Virus record (IMG/VR): IMGVR_UViG_2698536480_000007
Reading direction: 5' to 3' (one strand)
Length of the DNA stretch: 13,226 nt
Source: a virus
Taxonomy: Duplodnaviria > Heunggongvirae > Uroviricota > Caudoviricetes
The notes under the pieces are model-generated. The model was not told the DNA's origin. It saw nothing but the letters and a program-made list of their open reading frames with translations, and searched no databases. Made by a program: the position numbers and the translations under genes. Of the stretch, positions 4,167-13,226 are shown one piece after another. Position 1 is the first letter of the stretch. Each line of letters begins with the position of its first letter.

Positions 4167-4627
4167 GCAGAGTCGCCGCGATTATTTATGCTCTGGTTAT
4201 CTGCATCATCGTCTGCCTGTCATGGGCTGTTAATCATTACCGTGATAACGCCACCGCCTACAAAGAGCAGCGCGACAAAAATGCCAGAGAACTGAAGCTG
4301 GCGAACGCGGCAATTACTGACATGCAGATGCGTCAGCGTGATGTTGCTGCGCTCGATGCAAAATACACGAAGGAGTTAGCTGATGCGAAAGCTGAAAATG
4401 ATGCTCTGCGTGATGATGTTGCCGCTGGTCGTCGTCGGTTGCACATCAAAGCAGTCTGTCAGTCAGTGCGTGAAGCCACCACCGCCTCCGGCGTGGATAA
4501 TGCAGCCTCCCCCCGACTGGCAGACACCGCTGAACGGGATTATTTCACCCTCCGGGAACGACTGGTAATGATGCAGGCCCAACTTGAAGGTGCTCAGCAA
4601 TACATAACCGAACAGTGTTTAAAGTAA
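4163..4627 (+). CDS. Rz: i-spanin Rz (lambda-type)
   Basis: [30 protein letters not shown]... matches lambda Rz closely through the central region from memory. GTG 4163 overlaps the endolysin stop TGA 4164-4166; the ORF-track start TTG 4148 is the alternative. N-terminal TM segment followed by a coiled-coil region. Confidence 0.85.
4383..4568 (+). CDS. Rz1: o-spanin Rz1 lipoprotein, embedded in Rz in the +1 frame
   Basis: 61 aa [24 protein letters not shown]...: lipobox LVVVGC, Pro-rich periplasmic part, near-identical to lambda Rz1 from memory. Confidence 0.8.
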
Positions 4628-4764
4628 AATCTTAACTACAATATGATTCATTTTGATGATTGTTTCATAAGGAACAGTGAAGTAAGATCTAAGAGGAGTT
4701 AAATTTTATACAGTATAATCATAATATTGCAGCAAGGTGGTTATAATTGAAAGAATATTTAGAT

Positions 4765-6222
4765 ATGAATACATCTCATGTAAGAGTTGTTACTCATATG
4801 TGTGGGTTCCTGGTTTGGCTCTATAGTCTTTCAATGTTGCCACCAATGGTTGTAGCATTGTTTTATAAAGAAAAAAGCCTGTTCGTTTTCTTTATAACTT
4901 TCGTTATATTTTTTTGTATTGGTGGCGGAGCGTGGTATACAACTAAGAAATCTGGCATTCAATTACGTACCCGTGATGGGTTTATTATAATTGTAATGTT
5001 TTGGATTTTGTTTTCTGTTATTAGTGCATTCCCTTTATGGATTGACTCAGAACTTAATTTAACGTTCATTGATGCTCTGTTTGAAGGGGTTTCTGGAATA
5101 ACAACAACAGGAGCAACTGTAATTGATGATGTTAGTTCATTACCTCGGGCATATTTGTACTATCGGTCACAGTTAAATTTTATAGGTGGTTTAGGAGTTA
5201 TTGTTCTGGCGGTTGCTGTATTGCCATTATTGGGTATTGGTGGTGCAAAGCTTTATCAGTCAGAAATGCCGGGGCCATTTAAGGATGACAAACTCACTCC
5301 CCGCCTGGCCGATACGTCACGGACACTGTGGATAACTTATTCTTTATTAGGTATTGCTTGTATTGTCTGTTATAGACTTGCAGGAATGCCTTTGTTTGAT
5401 GCTATTTGTCACGGGATTTCCACAGTTTCGCTTGGTGGTTTCTCAACTCATAGCGAGAGTATCGGATATTTTAATAACTATTTGGTTGAGCTGGTGGCTG
5501 GTTCTTTTTCCCTGCTATCGGCTTTCAACTTCACTCTTTGGTATATTGTTATTAGCAGGAAAACGATAAAACCTTTAATCAGAGATATTGAACTTCGTTT
5601 CTTTCTGTTAATAGCCTTAGGGGTGATCATTGTTACCTCTTTCCAGGTCTGGCATATAGGTATGTATGACTTGCATGGAAGTTTTATTCATTCGTTTTTT
5701 CTTGCCAGCTCCATGCTCACTGATAATGGTTTAGCTACGCAGGATTATGCAAGCTGGCCCACGCACACGATAGTGTTTTTGCTGTTGTCAAGTTTCTTTG
5801 GGGGATGTATAGGTTCAACTTGTGGTGGAATTAAGTCACTTCGATTTCTTATACTTTTCAAACAAAGCAAACACGAGATAAATCAGCTTTCTCATCCCAG
5901 AGCGTTGTTGAGTGTAAATGTAGGAGGGAAGATAGTTACAGATCGTGTAATGAGGTCTGTATGGAGTTTCTTTTTTCTTTATACTCTCTTCACGGTGTTT
6001 TTTATACTGGTGTTAAATGGTATGGGATATGATTTTCTTACATCATTTGCAACAGTGGCTGCATGTATTAATAATATGGGATTAGGTTTTGGGGCTACTG
6101 CATCGTCATTCGGAGTGCTTAATGACATTGCAAAATATTTAATGTGCATAGCTATGATTCTTGGTCGCCTTGAAATTTATCCTGTTATTATATTGTTTTC
6201 AGGTTTTTTTTGGCGCTCCTAA
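4765..6222 (+). CDS. trkG: TrkG/TrkH-family potassium uptake transporter
   Basis: 485 aa from ATG 4765 (MNTSHVRVVTHMCGF...), multi-pass membrane protein with repeated GxG selectivity-filter-like segments (GISGITTTGAT, GIGGAK, SLGGFST, GLGFGAT). Matches K-12 Rac TrkG as recalled. A TTG at 4747 with better SD spacing is an alternative start. The gene is visibly AT-rich relative to its flanks. Confidence 0.85.
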   Translation: MNTSHVRVVTHMCGFLVWLYSLSMLPPMVVALFYKEKSLFVFFITFVIFFCIGGGAWYTTKKSGIQLRTRDGFIIIVMFWILFSVISAFPLWIDSELNLTFIDALFEGVSGITTTGATVIDDVSSLPRAYLYYRSQLNFIGGLGVIVLAVAVLPLLGIGGAKLYQSEMPGPFKDDKLTPRLADTSRTLWITYSLLGIACIVCYRLAGMPLFDAICHGISTVSLGGFSTHSESIGYFNNYLVELVAGSFSLLSAFNFTLWYIVISRKTIKPLIRDIELRFFLLIALGVIIVTSFQVWHIGMYDLHGSFIHSFFLASSMLTDNGLATQDYASWPTHTIVFLLLSSFFGGCIGSTCGGIKSLRFLILFKQSKHEINQLSHPRALLSVNVGGKIVTDRVMRSVWSFFFLYTLFTVFFILVLNGMGYDFLTSFATVAACINNMGLGFGATASSFGVLNDIAKYLMCIAMILGRLEIYPVIILFSGFFWRS

Positions 6223-6308
6223 TATATGGCTGATTTATAATTGTGAGTTTAATATTATGTTGACTCACTCATTGATCCAATACCTAACTTTACCAGCAAC
6301 ACCTCCGC

Positions 6309-6340
6309 CCCCAGTAGCACTGGCTGCTGGGGTGCGTTTT
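6309..6340 (+). terminator. intrinsic terminator downstream of trkG
   Basis: 10-bp stem CCCCAGTAGC (6309-6318) / GCTGCTGGGG (6323-6332) with one G-U pair, loop ACTG, followed by TGCGTTTTATT. Confidence 0.5.
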
Positions 6341-6359
6341 ATTCATAAAGCAAGGATGT

Positions 6360-7151
6360 ATGAGCGAGAAATTAAAGATAGTCTATCGCCCATTACAAGA
6401 ATTGTCACCGTATGCGCACAACGCCAGGACGCACAGCCCTGAGCAGGTGGCACAACTGGTAGAAAGTATTAAGCAATTCGGCTGGACTAATCCGGTGCTG
6501 ATTGACGAAAAGGGCGAAATTATTGCGGGTCACGGTCGTGTTATGGCGGCTGAAATGCTCAAAATGGATTCTGTTCCGGTCATTGTTCTGTCTGGCCTGA
6601 CGGATGAGCAGAAAAAGGCGTACCGCCTGGCAGATAATCGCCTGCCGATGAATGCTGGCTGGGATGAAGATCTGTTGCGGATGGAGCTGTCGGACCTAAT
6701 CAATGCTGATTTTGATGTCTCCCTGACAGGCTTCATCCCGACAGAAATTGATGAACTGTTGACGGATGTTTTGCCCGGTACAGGAAATGAGGAGGAGCCG
6801 TATACGACGAAAATTGATACGCCTGTTTATGAGCCGTCGGGCGGTAAACCGGATATCAGTGAACTGTACGACGATACGAAAACGCAGGAGCTGATCAGCC
6901 GGATACGTTCGGCTTCCCTTGAGCCTGATATTGAGAAATTCCTCCTGTGTGCGGCAGAACGTCACACGGTGTTTAATTTCAGCAGAATTGCGGACTATTA
7001 CGCTCACGCCCCCGCTGAAATTCAGTGTTTTTTCGAGGAGTCGGCGCTGGTGATCATTGATTATCAGCAGGCTATTGAAAATGGATTTGTCCGGATGACG
7101 CAGCGCATGGTGGAGATCATGCATGGTGGTGAGGAGGAGGAATATGCGTGA
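6360..7151 (+). CDS. ParB-like nuclease-domain protein (ParB/Srx N-terminal-type domain plus unassigned acidic C-terminal region)
   Basis: 263 aa. N-terminal region ...LQELSPYAHNARTHSPEQVAQLVESIKQFGWTNPVLIDEKGEIIAGHGRVMAAE... carries the G-H-G-R type signature of ParB-like domains. K-12 Rac has a short ynaK fragment at this position (from memory). Ends in an EEEE tail whose codons form the SD for the next gene. Confidence 0.6.
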   Translation: MSEKLKIVYRPLQELSPYAHNARTHSPEQVAQLVESIKQFGWTNPVLIDEKGEIIAGHGRVMAAEMLKMDSVPVIVLSGLTDEQKKAYRLADNRLPMNAGWDEDLLRMELSDLINADFDVSLTGFIPTEIDELLTDVLPGTGNEEEPYTTKIDTPVYEPSGGKPDISELYDDTKTQELISRIRSASLEPDIEKFLLCAAERHTVFNFSRIADYYAHAPAEIQCFFEESALVIIDYQQAIENGFVRMTQRMVEIMHGGEEEEYA

Positions 7152-8076
7152 TGATTTTTGCGCCTTTATTCTGACTCACGGGCGACCGGACAAAGTTCTG
7201 ACTTACCGAACGTTGCGTCGTGCTGGCTATACCGGGAAAATTTTTATCGTTGTTGATGATGAAGATAAGACACGGCATCAGTACATGGCTGAATTTGGTG
7301 AACAGGTGCTGGTGTTTTCCAAAACCGATATCGCCAGTCGTTTTGACGAAGCCGATAATTTCTGTGACCGCCGCTCAATTTTTTACGCCCGTAATGCCTG
7401 TTTCGACCTGGCAAAACTGGTCGGGTGTAAATACTTCATTCAGCTCGATGATGATTATCACGAGTTCCAGTTTCGGGTGGATCGCAACTATGACCAGGCC
7501 TATTTTCCGATAAGGAAACTGGATGCGATCCTTTCTGAAATGCTGGCGTACTACGAATCAATACCTGCTCTTTCCATCGCTATGTCGCAGGGCGGGGATT
7601 TTCTTGGTGACAATGGCGGCCATGCTTCGTGGGTGAAACGCAAGGCAATGAACAGCTTTATCTGTTCGGTTGATCGACCGTTCTCATTCATGGGGCGCAT
7701 TAACGAGGATGTGAATACGTACACGAATCTCGGTCGCTGTGGTGAATTGTTTATGACGATCGGTGCTGTCCAGTTAGGGCAGAAACAGACGCAGAAAAAC
7801 AGCGGCGGAATGACCGAGCTGTATCTGGATTCCGGAACCTACGTTAAAAGTTTTTACTCCGTCATGTATGCGCCGTCGTGCGTAAAAATTTCACTGATGG
7901 GTGCCAGCCATAAACGCATTCACCATCAGGTCACCTGGAACAACGCTGCAGTAAAAATCCTTCACGAAAAATACAGGAAGAAGACACCCTGCATATCAAT
8001 GGGGGTGACAAATGATTCCGTATTCGAAAGTCGAGTCTCTGGCAGCGTGCCGGATGACTGCACAACAAATCGCTGA
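7144..8076 (+). CDS. hypothetical protein with GT-A-fold glycosyltransferase-like motif pattern (YdaY-position protein)
   Basis: 310 aa from ATG 7144, preceded by GAGGAGGAGG and overlapping the upstream ORF by 8 nt. Motifs AFILTHGRPD, IFIVVDDED, FIQLDDDY (DxD-like) and GRINEDVN fit the order seen in nucleotide-sugar transferases. No TM segments. Assignment from motif pattern only. The last ~25 aa look non-protein-like. Confidence 0.45.
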   Translation: MRDDFCAFILTHGRPDKVLTYRTLRRAGYTGKIFIVVDDEDKTRHQYMAEFGEQVLVFSKTDIASRFDEADNFCDRRSIFYARNACFDLAKLVGCKYFIQLDDDYHEFQFRVDRNYDQAYFPIRKLDAILSEMLAYYESIPALSIAMSQGGDFLGDNGGHASWVKRKAMNSFICSVDRPFSFMGRINEDVNTYTNLGRCGELFMTIGAVQLGQKQTQKNSGGMTELYLDSGTYVKSFYSVMYAPSCVKISLMGASHKRIHHQVTWNNAAVKILHEKYRKKTPCISMGVTNDSVFESRVSGSVPDDCTTNR

Positions 8077-8263
8077 CGTTCTGGATGTTGATCTGAACCG
8101 ACTGAAAGAAAATCGGGAAGCAATGACAGATTTTTATGCGGCCATCCGTAAGGGCAGAGCGAAAGGTGAAGCCGAGTTACGAGCGGCATTGTTTAAGCTT
8201 GCCAGAAAAGGGGATGCCTTTGCTCTGCGCGAACTACTCAGGGTGGATAAAAATCAGGACTAA
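8012..8263 (+). CDS. small helix-turn-helix-like protein, possibly terminase-small-subunit-related or regulatory
   Basis: 83 aa (69 aa if from ATG 8054): ...MTAQQIADVLDVDLNRLKENREAMTDFYAAIRKGRAKGEAELRAALFKLARKGDAFALRELL. Stop TAA 8261-8263 lies 3 nt before the next ATG. From 8012 it overlaps the upstream ORF by 65 nt, so the true start is uncertain. Confidence 0.35.
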   Translation: MIPYSKVESLAACRMTAQQIADVLDVDLNRLKENREAMTDFYAAIRKGRAKGEAELRAALFKLARKGDAFALRELLRVDKNQD

Positions 8264-8266
8264 CTG

Positions 8267-9031
8267 ATGAGCAGACCGGACTGGGGGGCGTTGCAGCAGG
8301 AGTATATTGCTGAATACACCCGCTCCGGTATATCTCCGGTGGCATGGTGTGAAGCAAGGGGACTGAATTACGCAACAGCCCGTCGTTACATCAAAAAAAC
8401 TCCGAAAAATGCGCAGACAGAAATGCGCAAAACTGCGCAAAAAAGTGCGCAGAAAAAATCTGCGCAGACTGCACAAAAGCGGAACGAAAAATCTCAGGAA
8501 AAAAAGCCAGTATTCGATGCGGGCCTGAATGAGGGCGACGCGGAGGAATTTTCGTTCTGTCCCGATGAATTCGGCATTTCTGACCAGCAGGCTAAGTTTG
8601 CGATGCTTGTTGCTCAGGGTAAAAAGCCGACAGAGGCGTACCGACTAATGGGGCTTCGTGAAGAGATTCAGTCAGAGGTTGCCGCTGCTTTTGATGAGGA
8701 TTTAGCGGACGCCGTGAGTGATTTTTCTGGTTCTTACGTTACGCACCGGCACTGGGATCCTGTGACGGAAACTGGCGGCGAATCCACCGCAATCTATACC
8801 GGGCGAGGCGTGTTGACACGTTATAAGCTGGGCAGAATTGATGGGATTAATATTTTGCATGGTGACCTTAAATTAACCGCTCTGGTATGCGAGGTTACGG
8901 ATAAACCAGCTGTCGACCATATTATTGAGATTTATGATCCTGTATCAAGGCAGTTACAACGATACGAGGTAATTACAGCAAGTGTAGATCCTTCCGCATC
9001 AGTTTACTCTATCCAGTTAAGGAGAGCGTAA
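8267..9031 (+). CDS. chimeric ORF: terminase-small-subunit-like N-terminal region fused to a head-tail joining (adaptor)-like C-terminal region
   Basis: 254 aa. N-terminal HTH-like segments (SGISPVAWCEARGLNYATARRYIKK and ISDQQAKFAMLVAQGKKPTEAYRLMG) separated by a K/Q/A-rich linker. C-terminal ~95 aa (…HIIEIYDPVSRQLQRYEVITASVDPSASVYSIQLRRA) resembles head-tail adaptor proteins by pattern. Followed directly by tail genes with no terminase large subunit, portal or capsid ORFs. Confidence 0.45.
   Translation: MSRPDWGALQQEYIAEYTRSGISPVAWCEARGLNYATARRYIKKTPKNAQTEMRKTAQKSAQKKSAQTAQKRNEKSQEKKPVFDAGLNEGDAEEFSFCPDEFGISDQQAKFAMLVAQGKKPTEAYRLMGLREEIQSEVAAAFDEDLADAVSDFSGSYVTHRHWDPVTETGGESTAIYTGRGVLTRYKLGRIDGINILHGDLKLTALVCEVTDKPAVDHIIEIYDPVSRQLQRYEVITASVDPSASVYSIQLRRA
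8410..8475 (+). repeat. cluster of palindromic TGCGCA hexamers phased with A-tracts
   Basis: TGCGCA at 8410, 8424, 8434, 8446 and 8461 plus variant TGCACA at 8470, each preceded by A-runs. Encodes the linker ...NAQTEMRKTAQKSAQKKSAQTAQK. Confidence 0.6.
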
Positions 9032-9412
9032 ATGGCAAAGGCATGGGATATAGAACCGTCAATATTTGCCGGGATGATTGAGGAAGATGTAGGGCTGAAG
9101 ATTCGCTACATCGCTATGCAGATTCTTACTGCTATTGATATTGCTGCTCCGGTTGATACCGGACGTTTCAGAAATAACAACCTGGTGTCGTTACAGCATC
9201 CCGATTTTGGTATATCTGATAACGTGGATCCGAACGGTACGATTGCTGTTCAGCGTGGGATCGGGGTTATTTCGAAAGCTGCAAATTACGGGGTTATTTA
9301 TATCCAGAATAACCTTCCTTATGCAGAGGCTCTTGAAAACGGTCATTCACAACAAGCGCCAACTGGCGTGTATGCCAACGCTTTTCATGGTGTTTTACAG
9401 GCTTACAAATGA
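9032..9412 (+). CDS. HK97 gp10-like tail-component (head-tail/neck) protein
   Basis: 126 aa with AAPVDTGRFRNN and NNLPYAEALENG motifs typical of the HK97 gp10 family as recalled. SD AAGGAG; ATG immediately follows the upstream stop. Confidence 0.55.
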   Translation: MAKAWDIEPSIFAGMIEEDVGLKIRYIAMQILTAIDIAAPVDTGRFRNNNLVSLQHPDFGISDNVDPNGTIAVQRGIGVISKAANYGVIYIQNNLPYAEALENGHSQQAPTGVYANAFHGVLQAYK

Positions 9413-9801
9413 AGTTTACTGAAATCAGAAATACGGTTATTTCCAGAATGACGGCACAGACGATTATTGATGGAAAAGACGTATTGTATCCGAACGGGCC
9501 AACGTTCGATCCTTCCGGTAAGTTAATCTGGGCGCGGTTAAGTAATATTCCCGGGCAGGCTGGAGTTAATGAAATTGGCGCGGGGCCGGTTGTTTATCGC
9601 ACGGGGATAATCATTATTCAGTTATTTGTCCCCGCAGGTTCTGGTTCAAAACTCATTACTGAGACAGCCGATAAATTGCGGGAACTGTTTGAGTTTCAGG
9701 ATGACGATCGTCTCAGTTACCAGGCTGTTTCCTCAATAGCCGTCGGCGAAAAGAATGGCTGGTTCCAGCTTAATCTTCAAATTCCATATCGCGCGCTCTA
9801 G
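9409..9801 (+). CDS. tail-terminator / tail-completion-like protein (DUF3168-type position)
   Basis: 130 aa. ATGA overlap with the upstream gene. Sits between the gp10-like gene and the major tail gene, the conserved siphovirus order. Assigned mainly by synteny. Confidence 0.45.
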   Translation: MKFTEIRNTVISRMTAQTIIDGKDVLYPNGPTFDPSGKLIWARLSNIPGQAGVNEIGAGPVVYRTGIIIIQLFVPAGSGSKLITETADKLRELFEFQDDDRLSYQAVSSIAVGEKNGWFQLNLQIPYRAL

Positions 9802-9827
9802 CGCAATTAATGACATAGGAGGCTCCT

Positions 9828-10757
9828 GTGAGTTCAGGTGCAAAGGTTATCTCGGCATTTATCCGGGAGACAGTTGCAGGCACTACGCCAGCAAGTGGTG
9901 ACTGGAGTTTATTAAAACGCACAAGCTGGGGAGTAAAACCCACCCAGAATAAAGGCGAAAATAATGAGATTGGTGGCTCCCGGATGGCTCAGGGGGCGAC
10001 GCCTGGCACTGTGGATGTCGGCGGTGATGTTGGTACCAAATTTCGCTGGGGTCAACATGATGATTTTCTTGCATCCTGTTTCGGCGCGGAATGGTCAGGC
10101 GATTCTCTGACAATGGGGAATGAGCGAATAACATTTTCTCTGGCGACCTATGCGTCCGATGTCGGAATTGCCTCTGTCGTCAGAGGAGCGCAGGTTGGCT
10201 CATGGAAAATGCAGATCCCTAACGACGGCGATATTACAGCGACCGTAACCTTTGCCGGGCTGGGCTGGGAATCAAAGGCCGATGATACGAATTTTATCAA
10301 AGGCGAACCTGTGGATAGTGCAGGAAAGTTACGCTATTCGTTTAAGGAGGTTTCAGCAGTAAGCCTGAATGGTGTTGCCGGAGGTAACGGTTTTTGTATC
10401 GACAGTTTTGATATTCAGTTCGATAACAAACTCCAGACACAGCGTTGTATCGGGACTGGCTCGCCTTATGCAGGAGCAAATATTCCGACTACTTTTACAC
10501 CGTCCGGTACGGTGACGCTTTCATGGTCTAAAGCCGCGTGGGAAATCTGGAGTAAAACACTGACTGGAGAAACAGTTCCGTTCAGCTTCACGCTTTCGAA
10601 TGGAGAGGGGGCATACACTTTCAGTTTCCCGAAGGTTCAGGTGTCAGGTGAATGGCCTGATGGGGGTAATAGCGACATTATCCAGGTTCAATTGAGCATT
10701 ACCGCAGCAGATGAAGCACCTACGATAACCAGAAAAAAAATTCCCCGGCTGCCGTGA
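9828..10757 (+). CDS. major tail (tail tube) protein
   Basis: 309 aa, GTG start 5 nt after AGGAGG. Beta-rich Gly/Thr/Ser-rich composition and position immediately upstream of the chaperone G/GT pair. Confidence 0.6.
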   Translation: MSSGAKVISAFIRETVAGTTPASGDWSLLKRTSWGVKPTQNKGENNEIGGSRMAQGATPGTVDVGGDVGTKFRWGQHDDFLASCFGAEWSGDSLTMGNERITFSLATYASDVGIASVVRGAQVGSWKMQIPNDGDITATVTFAGLGWESKADDTNFIKGEPVDSAGKLRYSFKEVSAVSLNGVAGGNGFCIDSFDIQFDNKLQTQRCIGTGSPYAGANIPTTFTPSGTVTLSWSKAAWEIWSKTLTGETVPFSFTLSNGEGAYTFSFPKVQVSGEWPDGGNSDIIQVQLSITAADEAPTITRKKIPRLP

Positions 10758-10837
10758 TCGCAAAAGCCAGTGCTGAGGCGATTAGTTGATTTTCCGTTAT
10801 TCCTCCTGTGGTACTGCCCTACAGGGGGACGCATTGA

Positions 10838-11299
10838 ATGAGGTTATGGATGTTTATTCTTAATCAGAAAATTATCATTGGTGGAGAACGCTGGTTTACG
10901 CCAATGAAGGACTTAAAACCTGTAGACGGGTTAAAACTGTTGGTGGCAAGCAGCGATAACGATCAGTATCGCTCCCGTAATGCATTAATCCGTCGCCACA
11001 TTGAGAAAATGGATGCCAGTTTGCACGTCGGAACGAAGGAGTTTGATATTTCAAAGGTTTCCGAGGTGGATTCTGTTGATGATTTACTCATTGATAATGC
11101 CGCTCGTTATCTGCTGAAAGACTGGAAAGGGGTTGGTGAACTGGTTAATGGTGTTGAGGTTGCACTGGAATATACGGCAGAACGAGGGATCGCGCTGCTT
11201 AAGCAGAATCCAGAGTTGTACTGGCAGATCCTTGCAGAAGCAGCCAGCATCGCCCAGGGTAAAGAGCAGCAGAAGCAGGATACGATAAAAAAGCCATAG
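10838..11299 (+). CDS. tail assembly chaperone (lambda gpG analogue)
   Basis: 153-aa acidic protein ending ...DTIKKP with the slippery heptamer A-AAA-AAG (11287-11293) two codons before its stop. Start could instead be an internal Met. Confidence 0.6.
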   Translation: MRLWMFILNQKIIIGGERWFTPMKDLKPVDGLKLLVASSDNDQYRSRNALIRRHIEKMDASLHVGTKEFDISKVSEVDSVDDLLIDNAARYLLKDWKGVGELVNGVEVALEYTAERGIALLKQNPELYWQILAEAASIAQGKEQQKQDTIKKP

Positions 11300-11607
11300 C
11301 TGCCCAGCGGTGGTTATCGGAGTTCGGGGGAGAAAGGGGGGAAAAGGCAAGATGGAAGCGAGAAAAACTCAGGTTGCCACCGATACCGGAACCAGAAATA
11401 GACCCGGTGCTTAAGGAGTTGTTGTACGCCTATTCGGTAATATCCCGTGCCCGACGTTATGCTGGAATGGCTGGGGTGCCTTTGCCTTTATCTCTGACAG
11501 AGATAAATGAATATTTAGCCACTCATCCGGTATTGATTGAGCGCGATGAATTTGAAGCAGTGATCTTTGCACTGGATGACCAGTATTTTCAGGAGCAGTG
11601 TGTGTAG
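10838..11607 (+). CDS. tail assembly chaperone GT-like fusion made by programmed -1 ribosomal frameshift
   Basis: The -1 frame is open from 11263 to the stop at 11605-11607. Slipping at A-AAA-AAG (11287-11293) continues ...KK-AIAAQRWLSEFGGERGEKARWKREKLRLPPIPEPE... to 11607. The ORF-track ORF 11374-11607 is the tail of this extension. Confidence 0.5.
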
Positions 11608-11727
11608 TTGTTAATTACGTACACTCTGTTACAGAGATGTGATGGTGTCTTTAATTAAATCGATGATGCTCCTGGAGAAAAGCATTGCGTGGCCTCGTAA
11701 TCGCTATATCTACTATTATGTCGCCTG

Positions 11728-11753
11728 AAACCCACTTCGCGGTGGGTTTTTTG
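11728..11753 (+). terminator. intrinsic terminator-like hairpin between chaperone genes and the next ORF
   Basis: Stem AAACCCAC (11728-11735) / GTGGGTTT (11742-11749), loop TTCGCG, then TTTTGTTG. Confidence 0.45.
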
Positions 11754-11772
11754 TTGTCAGGAGTTTTAATAA

Positions 11773-12642
11773 ATGGCAGAGCAAACCTCGCGTCTCGCAA
11801 TAATTATTGATAGCACTGGAGCGAAAAATAATGCTGACAATCTGACCTCCTCATTAGTCAAAATGACGCAGGCTGGGGAAACTGCTGCAAATAGCGCAGG
11901 GAAAGTGACTAAGGCAACAGAAGATGAGAAGAACGCGCTCGCAAAATTAAAAGCAGCTATTGATCCAGTTGGTGCCGCAATTGATACTGTCGGTCGACGC
12001 TATTCTGAATTAAAGAAATTTTTCGATAAAGGGCTTATTGATAAAGAAGAATATGAATTTCTTGTCCGTAAACTTAATGAAACCACAGAGGAATTGAGCG
12101 GGGTTGCGCAAGCGCAGAGAGAAGCCGAGAAGGCCGGAAAACTTGCTGCCGCCCAGCAGGAAGCGCAGGCTCAGGCCTTTCAAAGAATGCTGGACAAGAT
12201 CGACCCTCTGGCTGCGGCGCTAAGAAATCTTGAACAACAGCATGATGAACTTAATGCTGCGTTTGCATCCGGGAAAATAAATGGTTCTCAGTTTGAGAAT
12301 TATAGCCGAAAAATACAGGAAACACGGCGAGAGCTTACCGGAGAGGCTCAGGCAGAGCGAGAAGCAGCAAAAGCGCATGATGAACAGGTTGTTGCTTTGC
12401 AACGTCTGATTGGTCTGGGCATTGGCACGATGGCGAATACGAACTCTGCTGGCGCGCATACCCACTCACTGTCCGGCACTGCTGCAAGCGCAGGTGCACA
12501 CGCACATACTGTCGGTATTGGTGCTCATACGCACTCCGTTGCGATTGGTTCACATGGACACACCATCACCGTTAACGCTGCTGGTAACGCGGAAAACACC
12601 GTCAAAAACATCGCATTTAACTATATTGTGAGGCTTGCATAA
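11773..12642 (+). CDS. chimeric ORF: tape-measure-like N-terminal coiled-coil region fused in frame to the C-terminal receptor-binding tip of a lambda Stf-type side tail fibre
   Basis: 289 aa. N-terminus [20 protein letters not shown]... and helical Q/A/E-rich repeats fit a tape-measure N-terminus and position. The last ~65 aa ([66 protein letters not shown]) match the lambda Stf / T4 gp37-type HxH tip from memory. Stop TAA 12640-12642 overlaps the tfa ATG. Confidence 0.55.
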
Positions 12643-13226
12643 TGGCATTCAGAATGAGTGAACAACCACGGACCATAAAAATTTATAATCTGCTGGCCGG
12701 AACTAATGAATTTATTGGTGAAGGTGATGCATATATTCCGCCTCATACAGGTCTGCCAGCAAACAGTACCGATATTGCACCGCCAGATATTCCGGCAGGC
12801 TTCGTGGCTGTTTTCAACAGTGATGAGTCATCGTGGCATCTCGTTGAAGATCATCGGGGTAAAACGGTTTATGACGTGGCTTCCGGCGACGCGTTATTTA
12901 TTTCTGAACTCGGTCCGTTACCGGAAAATGTTACCTGGTTATCGCCGGAAGGGGAGTTTCAGAAGTGGAACGGCACAGCCTGGGTGAAGGATACGGAAGC
13001 AGAAAAACTGTTCCGGATCCGGGAGGCGGAAGAAACAAAAAACAACCTGATGCAGGTAGCCAGTGAGCATATTGCGCCGCTTCAGGATGCTGCAGATCTG
13101 GAAATTGCAACGGAGGAAGAAATCTCGTTGCTGGAAGCATGGAAAAAGTATCGGGTATTGCTGAACCGTGTTGATACGTCAACTGCACCTGATATTGAGT
13201 GGCCTACGAACCCTGTCAGGGAGTAA
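12642..13226 (+). CDS. tfa: tail fibre assembly protein Tfa (lambda-type)
   Basis: 194 aa [51 protein letters not shown]..., near-identical to lambda Tfa as recalled. Follows the Stf C-terminal tip. Confidence 0.85.

Follow-up and report, generated by a model that had tools for sequence, protein, structure and literature searches.

A probable programmed -1 ribosomal frameshift in a lambda-type G/GT tail assembly chaperone pair of a Rac-like Escherichia coli prophage

The tail genes of a deleted Rac-like prophage

We analysed a stretch of 13,226 nt, hereafter the window, with a prophage region that matches Salmonella phage SPF_0923 and a prophage of 1075 among 5426 complete Escherichia coli genomes at 97.9-100% identity. 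The gene order was a terminator-like protein, the tail tube, the G/T pair and the tape measure, and the neighbours of the pair carry the RefSeq names 'phage tail tube protein' and 'phage tail tape measure protein'. The coordinates of the features are collected in Table 1. Just upstream of the structural genes, at 4190-6613, the prophage carries trkG, a host-like potassium transporter gene, together with the ParB-like ynaK, which is the known Rac arrangement. The same trkG is annotated inside the 'phage' record of SPF_0923.

Table 1. Features of the window that bear on the G/T junction
Feature	Position	Strand	Basis and remarks
Junction of the ~7.2-kb deletion	8646..8647	.	Alignment to locus L002 and its annotation
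Tail tube gene	9828..10757	+	Phage_tube_2 Pfam match, E 3.9e-32
G-like tail assembly chaperone ORF, YdaY family, 149 aa	10850..11299	+	phrog_313 match, RefSeq name ydaY, gene position
-1 frame ORF (T part)	11263..11607	+	Translation; phrog_1189; Phage_TAC_18 below cut-off
Slippery heptamer A-AAA-AAG, CC directly 3'	11287-11293	+	X-XXY-YYZ register; direct reading
Truncated tape-measure ORF	11773..12642	+	~213 N-terminal codons joined at ~12412 to the tail-fibre 3' end

The G-like ORF has the RefSeq name ydaY, which is a Rac-prophage gene of E. coli K-12. The ATG at 10850, preceded by GAGG at a distance of 6 nt, is a more likely start than the first ATG (10838), and the annotation of SPF_0923 likewise starts G at the ATG matching 10850. 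The product of 10850-11296 matched phrog_313 'Tail assembly chaperone' with an E-value of 4.9e-46 and 158 bits over profile positions 15-149 of 258. The local Pfam library gave no match for G, the homologues of G carry the precomputed assignment PF27119 Phage_YdaY, and a search of NCBIfam returned no matches for either G or T. An AlphaFold (AF2) model of G reached a pLDDT of 77 and a pTM of 0.75. A profile search of PDB sequences found no relatives of G with a solved structure, and a Foldseek search of the model against the PDB gave nothing below E = 1, solved chaperones included. Against BFVD, the model matched the predicted tail assembly or tape-measure chaperones of phages 9NA, CcrColossus, Loki, Sansa, Seurat and K1H with TM scores of ~0.45-0.54, and phage Loki has been proposed to shift on AAAAAAC (PMC5313236). 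The G protein of the window was 100% identical to that of many relatives.

The tube gene carries a homopolymer at 10733-10740 that is present as an A8 allele in the window. Among the loci, A9 was found in 33 and A8 in 6, namely the window, L002 and four others, and PGAP flags the identical tube CDS of L002 as 'frameshifted'. The A9 protein is 320 aa long and ends in TRKKNSPAAVIAKASAEAIS, versus 309 aa and TRKKIPRLP for the A8 protein. The A8 run also forms an in-register A-AAA-AAA heptamer, and a -1 slip there would restore exactly the A9 C-terminus. A leaky frameshift mutation, a hotspot and a sequencing artefact are all conceivable explanations of the A8 allele.

The prophage is defective, with at least two deletions. 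Window positions 5925-8646 correspond to positions 1-2722 of the intact relative L002, and positions 8646-12412 to 9947-13713 of L002 at 99.7% identity. Between these blocks ~7.2 kb are deleted: the terminase small-subunit gene is lost for the most part, and the genes for the terminase large subunit, portal, minor head and capsid are lost entirely. The second junction lies in the tape-measure gene, which is 3234 nt long when intact. Here the matches to intact relatives and to K-12 all stop at 12412, and 12410-13226 match, at 100% identity, tfaR and the 3' end of stfR in strain NCTC10444. The truncated tape-measure ORF carries a Phage_fiber repeat at aa 224-237, the next ORF is a Caudo_TAP protein, and tfa follows from 12642. 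Lost at the 12412 junction are lom, the greater part of stf and the tail-tip genes, from the minor tail proteins to J; among the complete E. coli genomes of the collection, none had this second junction in a single contiguous match. The stop of T and the start of the tape measure are 165 nt apart, and in this gap, inside what is expected to be a single late operon, lies an intrinsic-terminator-like hairpin at 11727-11756 (GAAACCCAC-TTCG-GTGGGTTT, followed by a T-run).

The slip site and the overlapping -1 frame

A preliminary description, made from the window alone, had placed A-AAA-AAG near the stop of the G-like ORF and had the -1 frame open as far as the end of T, and both points were confirmed by direct reading and translation. 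In the zero frame the codons are ATA (11285-87), AAA (11288-90), AAG (11291-93), CCA (11294-96) and TAG (11297-99). The G-like ORF ends in GAT ACG ATA AAA AAG CCA TAG, with the AAG of the heptamer as its second-last sense codon. A TAA at 11260-62 closes the -1 frame, which from there runs without a stop as far as a TAG at 11605-07, an ORF of 114 codons in total and 106 from the slip site. After slippage the stretch 11293-11604 would be translated as T, adding 104 residues (AIAAQRWLSEF...QEQCV) to G in a predicted GT fusion of 252 aa. The T ORF of the window is identical in DNA sequence to that of locus L016.

The position of the heptamer was compared with what could be expected by chance. The + strand of the 13.2-kb window has only 6 copies of AAAAAAG, and the overlap between the zero frame and the -1 frame offers only ~12 in-frame positions, so that the rough chance of such a heptamer falling in the overlap is 12 x 6/13226, or ~0.005. 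Within the long ORFs of the window there are 11 X-XXY-YYZ heptamers in register, and the one at 11287-11293 is alone in opening a long -1 ORF (106 codons); the other in-register heptamers open at most 35. The rarity of AAAAAAG, the sole long -1 ORF among 11 heptamers and the conservation of the site in diverged homologues, described below, together make it unlikely that the slip site is there by chance.

On its own, T matched phrog_1189, a family of unknown function, with an E-value of 1.8e-36, and it matched the Pfam family Phage_TAC_18 with an E-value of 6e-4 at 20.3 bits, under the curated cut-off of 27. A simulated G-T fusion covered profile positions 20-246 of the 258 in phrog_313 and scored 174 bits versus 158 for G alone. 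Against phrog_8233 'tail assembly chaperone', the fusion scored 34.1 bits and G alone 16.8. These matches indicate that phrog_313 and phrog_8233 include fused GT proteins whose second half is homologous to the -1 ORF. At moderate divergence, the T frame showed a dN/dS of 0.11-0.16, and compared with distant relatives it showed a pN of 0.25-0.40 and a pS of 0.8-0.9, the latter being saturated. From these substitution patterns, the -1 ORF is judged to be under purifying selection.

A TTG at 11374 initiates a 77-aa ORF (11374-11607), part of T has been annotated as a free-standing 'hypothetical protein' by several annotators, and T has a PHROG family of its own in phrog_1189. All three would suit a T that is a separate small gene, with its own start such as this TTG or reached by reinitiation past the stop of G, next to a heptamer that merely codes for two conserved lysines. 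However, the 27 T codons between the heptamer and the TTG, which is the first possible start, were constrained like the rest of T (mean pN 0.16, pS 0.72). The TTG itself was present in only 24 of 81 alleles, and no ATG, GTG or TTG in the T frame was conserved across the 81. Since the codons before the TTG are constrained and there is no conserved start, translation must enter T from G. The continuous alignment of the fusion to chaperone profiles that hold fused members also speaks against a separate T. An ATG at 11352 was considered as a start as well, with an SD-like purine-rich tract upstream, and was rejected: it opens only a 20-codon ORF in the +1 frame, and the tract is accounted for by the conserved T motif GE.GEK.

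The window has 10-bp direct repeats, GCAGAAGCAG, at 11234-11243 and 11269-11278. Deletion of the 35 nt between them gives exactly the 240-aa E. coli protein P0001, 'NB16F79_39920'. P0001 is a natural in-frame G-T fusion allele, which would yield GT alone and no G.

Conservation of the junction among relatives

The comparison with related G/T junctions that had been suggested as a check was carried out on 177 loci, taken from genomes, from viral contigs and from a single metagenome contig; these reduced to 117 unique G..T DNAs. In 109 of the 117, G carries an X-XXY-YYZ heptamer in register close to its end, and the -1 ORF that follows is 90 aa or longer. Of the eight exceptions, three run into contig ends but retain the heptamer, another three belong to close E. 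coli relatives and have a damaged T ORF, and the last two have non-canonical sites (L176, GCA-AAG-TAA; L096, G-GGG-AAG). The close relatives L035, L037 and L052 have T ORFs shortened to 41-63 codons past the heptamer, and L052 has single-base differences in G- and A-homopolymers in its context. Prophage decay or homopolymer sequencing errors could explain the short T ORFs of all three. Homologues of T extend to Pseudomonas and Acinetobacter phages, and the tube-G/T-tape-measure order is common to L176, TRS1, Aurca01 and Gungnir39.

The codons at the site were counted in 80 aligned distinct T-frame alleles, which reach down to ~55% identity and come from Escherichia, Citrobacter, Klebsiella, Raoultella, Pantoea and other genera. 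GTA-AAA-AAG was found in 55 of the 80 and ATA-AAA-AAG in 19, while GTG-GGA-AAG, which contains the lambda heptamer G-GGA-AAG, was found in four, and GTC-GCA-AAG (followed by TAA) and GTG-GGG-AAG in one each. The final AAG was invariant (80/80). Val/Ile-Lys-Lys was never spelled with synonymous non-slippery codons in these alleles, and the swap of Lys to Gly in the G-GGA-AAG alleles came with a change of the third base of the preceding codon, GTA to GTG. The absence of a non-slippery synonym, the invariant AAG and the paired GTG-GGA swap argue for selection on the nucleotides and not on the amino acids. A heptamer that only encodes lysines would not fit a swap that alters the amino acid and keeps the slipperiness, and with the constraint upstream of the TTG we consider a separately started T very unlikely. 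The zero-frame stop was not conserved and lay 3, 9, 27 or 37 codons past the site, while a -1 ORF of 106-126 codons stayed open throughout the aligned alleles.

The split of G and T could instead reflect the decay of a single ancestral gene by a frameshift mutation in a dying prophage, with the A-run as the mutational hotspot. The prophage in the window is heavily deleted, its tube gene does carry a homopolymer indel (A8 versus A9), truncated T ORFs occur in L035, L037 and L052, and a natural in-frame fusion exists in P0001. Yet the two-frame arrangement in 109 of the 117 unique sequences includes apparently intact phages and prophages of many genera. The zero-frame stop always comes after the site, and a contiguous single-frame version was found only in P0001, which arose via the 35-nt deletion between direct repeats and not via a change in the A-run. 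We therefore regard decay as extremely unlikely.

The heptamer rule is not absolute, as seen from the non-canonical sites in several members. L176 (2300-2340) and L179, Erwinia phage Gungnir39 (~1480-1501), have GCA-AAG-TAA, which is an A-AAG tetramer directly before the stop, while L177, Pseudomonas phage Aurca01 (~1495), has G-GAA-AAG and L096 (~2920) has G-GGG-AAG. A conserved -1 T ORF of ~110 aa still follows each of these four sites. As a very long shot, the GCA-AAG-TAA members might use a stop-adjacent single-tRNA slip on A-AAG, a distinct kind of chaperone shift site.

The same family bears on the possibility that the fusion is made by transcriptional slippage, in which RNA polymerase drops or adds an A in the A-run and the ribosome does not shift at all. 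A-runs are known realignment sites (PMC5009743, PMC3711429), and the protein product would be indistinguishable from the ribosomal one. Against this, the run in the window has only six A's, where ~eight or more are cited for productive slippage (PMC3711429), and the homologues with G-GGA-AAG, GCA-AAG and G-GAA-AAG have shorter runs and the same -1 ORF. An origin of the fusion at the RNA polymerase is thus highly improbable, and ribosomal slippage is the reading that we follow.

Among the closest known systems is the ydaY / ynaA (tmpR) remnant in the Rac prophage of E. coli K-12. Window positions 10948-12412 are 99.93% identical to it, and this stretch includes the heptamer and the whole T ORF. 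In contrast to the window, which retains the complete G and the tail genes upstream of it, K-12 has a G without its initial 32-33 codons, adjoining ynaK, and a tape measure that is cut elsewhere; neither the window nor K-12 carries a frameshift annotation in RefSeq. The preliminary description was correct in calling the tape measure truncated, with ~213 N-terminal codons now fused to the 3' end of a tail-fibre gene. Its further suggestion, that retention of the slip site points to a recent deletion, did not hold: the Rac prophage of K-12, with independent deletions, keeps the heptamer and the T ORF too, so retention does not date the deletion. The 99.7% identity of the surviving tail block to the intact prophage is compatible with a recent deletion and does not prove one. 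In the window the G/GT cassette is a relic, with no intact partner, and the slip is functionally moot. That the cassette has been selectively kept in cryptic Rac-type prophages, in the window and in K-12, for a role unrelated to their own tails is a very long shot. If true, selection would explain why the cassette is intact despite the lost tape measure, and the kept cassette could, for instance, help or disturb the tails of phages that are co-resident or superinfecting.

Proposed frameshift and comparison with known systems

Taken together, the site is very probably that of a programmed -1 ribosomal frameshift by which a Rac-like siphovirus prophage of E. coli would make a lambda-type G/GT pair of tail assembly chaperones, as far as can be judged from sequence comparisons. 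Most ribosomes on G would terminate at the TAG at 11297, and a minority would slip back by one base on A-AAA-AAG, where the tRNA-Lys on AAA and AAG would re-pair to AAA-AAA. The slipped ribosomes would read GCC at 11293 onward and stop at 11605-07 to give the 252-aa GT. If the analogy with lambda holds, the tape measure would be coated by G and by the G portion of GT, and the T part of GT would recruit the tube protein. The analysis shows the anatomy and homology of the junction, the conserved slip site, the selection on the -1 ORF and the lack of a conserved start in T; from these we infer the actual occurrence of slippage, its efficiency and the binding partners of G and GT.

The signal appears to consist of the heptamer alone, with the 3' CC possibly helping. 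Folds of 11287-11370 and 11294-11330 gave no evidence of a downstream RNA stimulator, being no better than shuffled sequences (z +1.1 and -0.4), and an alignment fold of 14 diverse junctions gave a consensus of -1.56 kcal/mol without compensatory pairs. Upstream, the only Shine-Dalgarno-like element was an AGGA ending 6 nt before the heptamer, and this was missing in several homologues, L101 and L109 among them. Since neither the single-sequence nor the alignment folds revealed a stimulatory element, the efficiency may be low. A-AAA-AAG belongs to the heptamers most prone to shifting in E. coli, and CC favoured shifting more than any other dinucleotide to follow in a systematic study (both PMC5009743). 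The G/GT shift is conserved widely, and lambda makes G and GT at ~30:1 (PMC5009743), and the chaperone sites of related HK97-like prophages gave 6-7% in reporters (PMC3711429).

In lambda, the -1 frameshift takes place at G-GGA-AAG (Levin et al. 1993; Xu et al. 2004, 2013, 2014, as these are summarised in PMC5009743). The junction in the window shares with lambda G/GT its position between the major tail or tube gene and the tape-measure gene, a G ORF of ~150 aa that ends just past an X-XXY-YYZ heptamer, and a -1 ORF of ~105 aa without its own start and with no RNA stimulator evident. The exact lambda heptamer also occurs in some YdaY-family members. In contrast, the heptamer in the window is A-AAA-AAG, and the tube protein is of the Phage_tube_2 type and not lambda gpV. 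No similarity to lambda G or T was found in the Pfam, PHROG or PDB searches, through whose libraries the comparison was made indirectly. A second point of comparison was Acinetobacter phage vB_AbaS_TRS1 (NC_031098), where TRS1_18/TRS1_19 include a true T homologue (36.5% identity, 82% of T covered). Its genes follow the same order, a G-GGA-AAG heptamer opens a 112-aa -1 ORF, and RefSeq annotates a joined (j2) chaperone CDS. TRS1 differs in being distant and of a different host genus, with its G stop 28 codons past the site.

For its shift, dnaX of E. coli relies on a Shine-Dalgarno-like element ~10 nt upstream of the heptamer and on a hairpin ~5-9 nt downstream of it, and with ~50% efficiency it makes the short product. 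The window has no conserved stimulator, and a shift there would make the long product. What the two have in common is the heptamer A-AAA-AAG with its slipping tRNA-Lys pair, as described for dnaX tau/gamma (PMC5009743). The likeness to dnaX proposed in the preliminary description was thus upheld for the identity of the heptamer and not for the stimulators, given the folds and the unconserved AGGA. A dnaX-like stimulated cassette was accordingly rejected, with both the downstream stem-loop and the upstream SD-like element wanting. The cassette resembles, in its predicted organisation, the lambda G/GT type with a low-level shift on the heptamer alone and not dnaX. The other earlier proposal, that the slip gives a GT-like fusion by the conserved chaperone frameshift of long-tailed phages, was supported by synteny, profile matches, conservation of the heptamer and selection, which make such a fusion the predicted product.

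The element is of a known kind, and both the mechanism and the wider family are already recognised. This is ordinary biology and leaves the understanding of frameshifting and of tail assembly as it was. The new point is only that RefSeq leaves the frameshift of YdaY unannotated. In RefSeq, ydaY is present in about a thousand complete E. coli genomes without a frameshift partner, and T is absent or a 'hypothetical protein'. YdaY was not recorded as the G half of a G/GT pair in RefSeq or in the searched papers, K-12 included; the literature on ydaY with frameshift, Rac or tail gave incidental mentions only, in a search that covered work other than Xu et al. 2004. The family also offers a clean comparative example of slip-site turnover, with A-AAA-AAG, G-GGA-AAG and A-AAG beside the stop all represented. 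The main value lies in annotation, where YdaY is a named and functionally blank gene of E. coli K-12, and reading YdaY and the -1 ORF as a G/GT pair would give a function to both.
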